Source: a virus (lineage: Duplodnaviria > Heunggongvirae > Uroviricota > Caudoviricetes). Taken from it: a stretch of 5,958 bases of DNA. Location: the IMG/VR virus record IMGVR_UViG_2698536337_000006, one strand, 5' to 3'. Below, piece by piece: positions 1-350 of the stretch (position 1 is the first letter of the stretch; each line of letters opens with the position of its first letter). The position numbers and the translations under genes are program-made. The notes beneath the pieces are model-generated. The model did no database searches. It saw only the letters and a program-made list of their open reading frames with translations, and was not told the origin of the DNA.

Positions 1-73
1 TACACTAAATCAGTAAGTTGGCAGCATCACCAGCCTTCTTGAGGCTACCACCTGTTTTCAGGTGTCATTCAGA

Positions 74-109
74 CGTGATTTGCCCCAGATTGGGAAAGCA
101 CGCTTTTTT
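74..109 (+). terminator. Possible intrinsic terminator: imperfect stem (cgtgatttgcc / gggaaagcacg, 9 of 11 pairs) followed by TTTTTT
   Basis: Hairpin 74-102 followed by a T-run at 104-109. A plus-strand reading frame entering from the window start stops at 40-42, so this could terminate an upstream gene. The stem is imperfect. Confidence 0.3.
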
Positions 110-350
110 CTCAGCTATCGTCCTCTTATTTTGCCGTTACATTTCTTTTTGCATTCTAATGATTAATTTACAATAATAATATCGGTAATTATTGAGTAAT
201 AATAAATTAATTATTGCAAATGTAATTTAATTCCATCTTCGCGTTATATTCCAATCTTTAATCTCCGCATGGAACAAGTTGCATGCGTGACTATATTAAG
301 ACGACTTATAACCACCAAAACATTTGCTTTGCAAGCAAAAACAGTGACCA

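Follow-up and report, generated by a model that had tools for sequence, protein, structure and literature searches.

The left end of the viral sequence analysed here (the window, a stretch of 5,958 nucleotides from the Caudoviricetes record IMGVR_UViG_2698536337_000006 of IMG/VR) raises the question of what is encoded in its first 116 nucleotides, just before a long AT-rich segment. An initial annotation had proposed that a gene located upstream enters the window at position 1 and stops at 40-42, and that it is followed by a small palindrome and by a possible terminator, which would mark the boundary of the AT-rich segment. The individual elements were found as described: frame 1 ends with a TGA at 40-42, the palindrome CACCTG-TTTT-CAGGTG is present at 49-64, and the imperfect hairpin followed by six T residues, which had been placed at 74-109, is formed by pairing of 71-85 with 92-104 and ends in the run T104-T109. 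The region also bounds the AT-rich segment, with a step in GC content near position 116 (46.6% in 1-116, 29.4% in 117-780, and 54.1% in the remainder of the window), and the alternative right-hand neighbours present in related sequences diverge at 116/117. The interpretation of these elements is a different matter. We consider it probable that 1-116 represents two ordinary elements, the tip of an IS1 and a relic of the attachment end of a serU prophage that carries an orphaned, probable terminator; both the IS1 tip and the terminator-like relic are of well-known kinds (Table 1).

Table 1. Features at the left end of the window and the segment that adjoins them, in window coordinates.
Feature	Position	Strand	Remarks
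Terminal 31 nt of IS1 (IS1A-like)	1-31	-	Identical to L001 6001-6031, the end of an annotated IS1A
IS1/prophage junction, rearrangement breakpoint	31-32	.	Without target-site duplication; 550 bp fewer than in relatives that lack IS1
Last 2 nt (AG) of the repeated motif AATATTCCAAG	32-33	+	Remainder cut off by IS1
Small predicted hairpin AGCCUU-CUU-GAGGCU	32-46	+	Contains the TGA at 40-42
Conserved 85-bp non-coding module	32-116	+	Follows directly on the attP P arm in lambdoid prophages that integrate at serU
Perfect palindrome CACCTG-TTTT-CAGGTG	49-64	+	Left arm in the serU-type unit, right arm in the more widely shared unit
19-nt stretch TTTCAGGTGTCATTCAGAC	56-74	+	Immediately 5' of the terminator stem
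Imperfect stem-loop (71-104) and T6 (104-109)	71-109	+	Putative intrinsic terminator, integrase sense
AT-rich b-region cassette (29% GC)	117-780		Between the module and the tail-fibre assembly gene; context, outside the module

A megablast search of window positions 1-400 against complete E. coli genomes returned full-length matches at 99.3% identity. In the genomes that carry these matches, a lambdoid prophage occupies the lambda attachment site and has the sequence at its bio-side end, with the gene order bioA, ybhB, IS remnants, an AraC-family regulator, IS1A, and the AT-rich stretch of the window, followed by the genes for tail-fibre assembly, side tail fibre, Lom, and J. In the locus L001, in which position 6001 corresponds to window position 1, a 768-bp element at 5264-6031 is annotated as an IS1-like IS1A family transposase with a programmed frameshift and a CDS in two pieces. 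The first 31 nt of the window are identical to the end of such 768-bp copies with the insA/insB' programmed frameshift, and the reverse complement of 9-31 corresponds to the 23-bp left inverted repeat GGTGATGCTGCCAACTTACTGAT, which we take to be the IRL of IS1. Only these last 31 nt of the element are included in the window; the rest of IS1, including the start of insA, is upstream of position 1, and the transposase CDS (L001 5279-5976, minus strand) points away from the window and starts 25 nt outside it. A 62-nt probe dominated by this IS1 end was found at 57,045 places in 4331 of the 5426 genomes.

Regarding the frame that enters the window, frame 1 reads ...YTKSVSWQHHQPS* up to the TGA at 40-42. 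When this frame was traced into the upstream DNA, a stop was encountered 32 codons before the TGA, without any ATG, GTG, or TTG in between, and in the genomes that match the left end the upstream DNA corresponds to IS1A, with its transposase on the opposite strand; the gene end proposed for 1-42 is thus refuted. As a coding sequence, frame 1 was rejected (no start codon, 32 codons, antisense to the IS1 end), and it is a chance frame that runs antisense across the IS1 tip and the junction. Given that 1-31 and 32-42 have different origins and were joined by transposition, frame 1 does not represent the end of a gene.

The origin of the junction can be traced by comparison with the IS1-free phages ev099, mEp332, and PhiR70_1, which match window positions 32-800 at 98.6-99.2% identity. 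A blastn comparison of L001 with ev099 (L004) aligned L001 4300-5263 with L004 2487-3450, and L001 6032-6500 with L004 4001-4469, so that the 550 bp of ev099 at L004 3451-4000 are replaced by IS1 in L001. The IS1 is flanked by GCCAATAAG on its left and by AGCCTTCTT on its right, and no direct target-site duplication of 8-9 bp was found around it; this absence is explained by the adjacent deletion of 550 bp, and does not count against the identity of the element as IS1. The exact IS1/AGCCTTCTT junction was found in 93 of the 5426 complete genomes and also in 13 of 37 IMG/VR matches. One fixed junction accompanied by variable, nested endpoints on the other side is the classical pattern of IS1 deletions. 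The IMG/VR prophage L020 has the identical right junction and a left junction located approximately 190 bp further left, the nested pattern that adjacent deletions mediated by IS1 would produce when they extend from its opposite end. These comparisons show that the left boundary of the locus is the scar of an IS1-mediated deletion.

The 550 bp that were lost, as preserved in ev099, include 278 bp that are 97% identical to the yodB-serU spacer of K-12, the 62-nt 3' part of the tRNA-Ser(CGA) gene serU, and an AT-rich stretch of approximately 110 bp (24.5% GC) that ends in AATATTCCAAG. The copy of AATATTCCAAG that ends at 32-33 would be an arm-type site for integrase binding, the outermost one of a serU-type attP. 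In the relative L005, five copies of the 8-mer ATTCCAAG are located between 3752 and 4002 (250 bp around the core), when only 0.42 copies are expected in 8 kb and none of 200 shuffled sequences contained five. Three of these copies are in tandem within the 3' end of int, a fourth has the inverted orientation within the arm, and the fifth, at the outer edge of the arm, ends at the base equivalent to window position 33; we propose that they are putative arm-type Int sites. As a separate observation, the b region of ev099 (L004 3551-3890), as well as that of mEp332 (L003) and PhiR70_1, includes 340 bp of E. coli chromosome, which consist of the yodB-serU spacer and the last 62 nt of serU at 97% identity to K-12. 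This segment is a fossil prophage-host junction, and it suggests that an ancestor acquired the end of a serU prophage together with the flanking host DNA.

The unsplit arrangement was observed in L005, L021, L023, and L038, which show an attP-like order of int stop, tRNA-Ser fragment, P arm, and module, and in L038 the sequence continues after the module into the AT-rich right flank of the window type. On the strand of the module, the order in intact relatives is exo, a xis-like gene, int, the attP core (the 62-nt 3' part of serU), the AT-rich P arm of approximately 110 bp with its ATTCCAAG motifs, the 85-bp module, and the b region, beyond which the tail-fibre genes are found on the other strand. 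In the O157:H7 locus (L009), exo, the xis-like gene, and int adjoin an intact serU, followed by mtfA, and in L008 and L006 the order runs from yodB/zinT to the tRNA fragment, the arm, and the tail-fibre side. In the complete 45.6-kb prophage L061, the module is at one end and int/serU at the other. Lambdoid and P22-like phages that integrate at serU, for example prophage SerU-LTIIb and the Salmonella ST64B-type phages, have in their attP the 3' part of tRNA-Ser(CGA), which extends from the anticodon loop to CCA, and restore the gene beside int upon integration. The window, in contrast, has lost the core together with the tRNA fragment and the P arm, and only the DNA just outside the arm is left. 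The module is not obligatory for a serU-type attP, since the partial prophage record of SerU-LTIIb has the same attP arm without it.

Two other arrangements around this arm were noticed. In L010 (around 3000) and L019 (around 4540 in the oriented sequence), the P arm and the module are joined to unrelated DNA exactly at CTACGG/TTTTCGAGACC, a breakpoint located in the anticodon loop of the tRNA, which suggests either the strand-exchange point of the serU-type integrase or integration at a secondary site. In L049, three tandem TTGGTATA repeats (2296-2340) directly follow a complete tRNA-Ser and its terminator, and they look like the arm-type sites of a different integrase beside the same terminator module.

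The sequence that remains to the right of the IS1 tip is a module of 85 bp (32-116), which was detected at 848 places in 804 of the 5426 complete E. coli genomes, all of them chromosomal, at 93-100% identity, a level of conservation that could simply reflect recent spread. In many IMG/VR loci, as well as in L004-L006, it adjoins a fragment of tRNA-Ser. Among the GTDB species representatives, the module was found only in E. coli and Shigella, apart from two matches, judged to be due to chance, in one Bacteroidales and one Oleiphilaceae MAG. A dispersed repeat or MITE was considered and rejected, given a median of one copy per genome and a position at the end of a prophage in every locus examined. 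The length of the T-run varies from 6 to 8 nt among the copies, and from position 117 onward, 7 nt after the T-run, the right flank of the window type alternates with another, referred to here as X-type. The module is therefore non-coding. The switch of flanks at 117 falls inside every candidate ORF, and the variation of the T-run inside the window ORF at 18-176 and gp28 of ev099, neither of which has a Pfam match; both of these ORFs were rejected. A search of window positions 1-1000 with Rfam 15 at E<=1 gave no match at 1-116, and none was obtained on the module in five related loci.

On the right of the module, the X-type flank is a unit of approximately 100 nt (L005 4100-4240, L006 4100-4235, L051 2580-2710) that replaces the sequence from window position 117 onward. 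A promoter-like sequence, TTGAAT-18-TAAAAT, is found in it together with a strong hairpin (CCGCAGCACG...CGTGCTGCGG) with a T-run. More than 200 phage records have a match to this unit, among them lambda (24162-24259), and in RefSeq it appears as a 55-aa 'capsid protein' without Pfam support. This unit could be an unannotated small RNA or a terminator. In the window, the position of the X-type flank is occupied by the AT-rich cassette, whose small ORFs have no Pfam match. A 33-aa hydrophobic ORF (MKIQSKLIVLLNIIIAFILFELLAQKFGLSTLF, 415-516, plus strand, also without a Pfam match), two terminator-like hairpins on the plus strand, one of them with 11 pairs and a T-run at 664-688, and a very weak MicC-like match (E 0.91) were noted in this cassette; the coordinates recorded for these observations are 415-516 (+), 471-489, 575-702, and 664-688 (+). 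They could represent a small toxin or sRNA locus, or nothing.

Two further observations concern the remainder of the window. Positions 821-1000 (minus strand) match the Rfam family IS009 with 189 bits, against a gathering score of 117, and this match is wholly within the tail-fibre assembly gene (781-1362, minus strand), so that the 'RNA family' is here a coding sequence. In addition, 4343-4642 and 5339-5638 form a direct repeat with a spacing of 996 bp and 90% identity over 300 nt, which holds the N-terminus of the tail-fibre gene and a lom truncated to 108 of 199 profile positions; an N-terminal fragment of an HTH transposase (4867-5028) is located between the two copies. This direct repeat is the scar of a local rearrangement.

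We then considered each of the secondary structures predicted in the module. The arms of the palindrome (49-54 and 59-64) have 6 nt each, are 100% complementary, and enclose a loop of 4 nt; when folded alone, the palindrome has an energy of -8.8 kcal/mol (z -3.55), and 2 of 200 shuffled sequences folded as well. Its two arms are of different origin: the diverged copies that we call type B read GGGAAATTTTCAGGTG and do not have the left arm. Among the 50 serU-type copies tallied, which are those present in the fetched loci, 3 have TACCTG, which leaves a U.G wobble in the stem. A full-text search of papers gave no match to the palindrome sequence, and there is no sign of any role for it beyond that of an accidental or accessory hairpin. 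A function is also improbable for the small hairpin at 32-46, whose pairs are broken by the variants GAGTCC or GAGGCC in 20 of the 50 serU-type copies.

The hairpin at 71-104 has a stem of approximately 12 pairs with one mismatch (A78.G98) and two bulges (A73 and G82), and its predicted energy in the window copy is -9.7 kcal/mol (z -1.5), a value reached by 18 of 200 shuffled sequences. A simple scan for consensus terminators did not call this bulged hairpin, and the stem has no T-run after it when read on the minus strand. Taken alone, neither of the two hairpins of the window copy is beyond chance; what lifts them above it is that the 85-bp sequence recurs in 804 genomes, and that diverged copies keep the second hairpin.

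The substitutions found in the stem among the serU-type copies fall into three classes. In the first, the bulged G82 is replaced by A; in the second, A95T pairs with A82, which increases the predicted stability to -14.2 kcal/mol (z -4.5); in the third, which affects the basal pair, C74U keeps a wobble and pairing is lost with C74A, which occurs in only one copy. The energies of the variants, from -14 to -21 kcal/mol when the diverged copies described next are included, go together with T-runs of 7 or 8 nt. More distant copies of window positions 55-116 were recovered by blastn at the ends of prophages located at the hyaA-side tRNA-Ser, ydfJ, and ompW, and a further diverged copy (L054) was obtained from a pattern scan. 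In these diverged copies, the stems differ at 5-7 positions and yet they pair better, with energies of -17.5, -18.9, and -21.2 kcal/mol and z values down to -4.6. The changes U76-A100 to C-G and U81-A95 to C-G are compensatory, the A78.G98 mismatch becomes C-G, and overall two of the defects of the window stem are repaired. In an alignment of eight sequences, 85% of the cells are paired, compared with 31-53% when the partners are slid. The covariation score was attained by 2 of 500 shuffles and two pairs change on both sides, with the qualification that this result is based on eight distinct sequences and two pairs, and that the copies were found through their conserved flank, which biases the sampling. 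This comparison gives modest but real support to the idea that the stem has been kept by selection.

In L051 (2290-2500), L050 (2290-2500), and L049 (2345-2500), from prophages at ompW, ydfJ, and beside the hyaA-side tRNA-Ser, the same terminator is preceded by a conserved non-coding sequence of approximately 210 nt, the type-B unit, which was found in 87 complete genomes. Small ORFs within this unit were rejected, as no frame is conserved, and sequenced phages, when searched for the unit, yielded nothing but the adjacent X unit. In L050, a P2-like tail gene D has its stop codon facing the element.

The terminator proposed by the initial annotation therefore survives in a modified form: a conserved terminator-like hairpin with a T-run and covariation is present, and in intact relatives it is located downstream of an integrase gene on the same strand, whereas no gene that it would terminate can be identified in the window, from which the integrase is absent. 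Judging from structure and position, the hairpin and the T-run are probably an intrinsic terminator for transcription of the plus strand, that is, in the sense of the integrase gene, with transcripts expected to end at the T-run. A terminator that works in one direction also agrees with the lack of a T-run on the minus strand, with the mosaic break 7 nt after the T-run, and with the orientation of the element relative to gene D in L050. Simple promoter scans detected no promoter feeding the module. In an intact phage, this putative terminator would act as a Rho-independent stop for integrase-sense transcripts that have passed attP, before they enter the late genes in antisense; in the integrated prophage, the same terminator would block transcription entering from the yodB/zinT side of the host chromosome. 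In the lineage of the window, the module would have become a relic within the b region of a phage of the att-lambda type, together with a fragment of host DNA; IS1 would then have been inserted at its left edge, and an adjacent deletion would have removed the 550 bp containing the host fragment, the tRNA fragment, and the P arm. We infer this order of events. As a result of the IS1-associated deletion of 550 bp and of earlier recombination, the window no longer has int, attP, or the tRNA fragment, and the terminator is therefore orphaned in it.

This arrangement resembles the tI terminator of lambda. The module comes after attP on the strand that has the sense of int, follows directly on the outermost arm-type repeat, and consists of a stem-loop and a T-run; in lambda, the hairpin of tI begins directly after the arm site P1. 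In L005, the int stop (3798-3800) and the T-run (4073-4079) are approximately 279 nt apart, and the T-run of lambda tI ends 274 nt after the int stop. The three tandem ATTCCAAG copies inside the 3' end of int are also comparable to the P'1-3 sites of lambda. As in tI/sib, whose mechanism has been described (PMC2951348; PMC5300877), integration uncouples the module from int, as can be deduced from the relatives L005, L021, L023, and L038 and from the prophage L061. In contrast, the location that characterizes tI/sib is not found in the window itself, from which int and attP are absent, and the module differs from lambda tI by its shorter stem, imperfect in the window copy, and by the extra 6-bp hairpin that precedes it. 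Comparison of the module with lambda 27300-29000 by blastn-short gave only chance matches of 7-9 nt, and no homology was detected.

Among the alternatives to a terminator left over from a serU-type attachment end, we considered that the module could be a small regulatory RNA or its 3' end, for example a 3'-UTR-derived sRNA of approximately 55-80 nt, in which TTTCAGGTGTCATTCAGAC would be the seed, and the hairpin and U-tail an Hfq-type terminator. In addition to the U-rich tail, this explanation draws on the fact that the single-stranded TTTCAGGTGTCATTCAGAC is unchanged in L049, L050, and L054, diverged copies whose stems are unlike that of the window; an invariant single-stranded stretch next to a covarying stem is the pattern typical of sRNAs. 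The unit also follows, in other prophages, the different conserved non-coding sequence of approximately 210 nt that has no conserved ORF. However, the invariance of TTTCAGGTGTCATTCAGAC may be an artefact of detection, because both BLAST and the pattern search require a conserved stretch, and two copies otherwise similar to the window differ at position 74 (A in L035 and T in L044). Moreover, no promoter-like site was found in the P arm or in the type-B unit, no Rfam family matched, the palindrome sequence had no counterpart in the full text of papers, and in the window any upstream promoter has been replaced by IS1. Known prophage sRNAs do not map here: Esr41 is located in OI-43, svsR at the 3' end of cI, and PasA/C/D in the Q/lysis region. 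For these reasons, we regard an sRNA as an unlikely explanation of the module. The more specific proposal that 56-109 (the 19 nt, the hairpin, and the U-tail) is a previously undescribed sRNA or 3'-UTR-derived regulator shared by several unrelated types of prophages (serU-type lambdoid, ompW, ydfJ, hyaA-adjacent tRNA-Ser, and one P2-like tail module) appears quite unlikely. If it were correct, such an RNA would be present in about 15-17% of the complete E. coli genomes, and integration and excision would rewire its expression, since attP separates this unit from the integrase operon.

The similarity with lambda could also extend to the sib function, in which case an RNase III site on the read-through transcript would destabilise the int mRNA, an effect that would be uncoupled in the prophage. 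The location of the module beyond attP on the int strand, its separation from int by integration, and a distance from int to the T-run that is the same as in lambda are all in agreement with this possibility. Nevertheless, the folds of 150 nt of read-through RNA (z -0.5 and -1.1) were not superior to those of shuffled sequences, had a longest helix of approximately 12 bp, and predicted no extended duplex of the RNase III type, whereas the lambda tI/sib control gave the long stem expected of it, with the U-run paired (-24.3 kcal/mol, z -4.4). Together with the lack of sequence similarity to lambda, this makes a retroregulator of the sib type very unlikely.

A role at the level of DNA, as an arm site for proteins such as Int, Xis, or IHF, or no role at all, the module being a sequence at a recombination boundary whose hairpin and T-run are incidental, would fit with a module that abuts the outermost ATTCCAAG repeat and has mosaic breakpoints at both edges, and a perfect palindrome of 16 bp would suit a dimeric binding protein. 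This explanation is highly improbable, given that the compensatory changes keep an RNA-type pairing that neither a DNA site nor a neutral linker needs, that the left arm of the palindrome is absent from the type-B copies, and that SerU-LTIIb has the attP arm without the module. Finally, the proposal that 1-42 is the 3' end of an upstream protein gene and the hairpins its terminator, which is prompted by the stop codon of the entering frame and by the hairpin with T6 that follows it, is almost certainly wrong, as IS1 is upstream in all 93 genomes with the junction, with insA on the other strand, the frame comprises 32 open codons without a start, and 1-31 and 32-42 are of separate origin.

The reading that we favour, an IS1 tip joined to a serU-type attachment-end relic with a probable terminator, has little importance beyond annotation, in that a plausible-looking call of a gene end is corrected. 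It also reveals that the outer edge of serU-type attachment sites carries a module of 85 bp without an annotation of its own; this module can be likened to lambda tI, and in RefSeq and phage annotations it is either blank or covered by spurious small ORFs, such as gp28 of ev099. If the module is indeed a terminator, it would be another lambda-style case of a regulatory 3' element of int located across attP, and would provide a handy marker for the b-region end of serU-type prophages.
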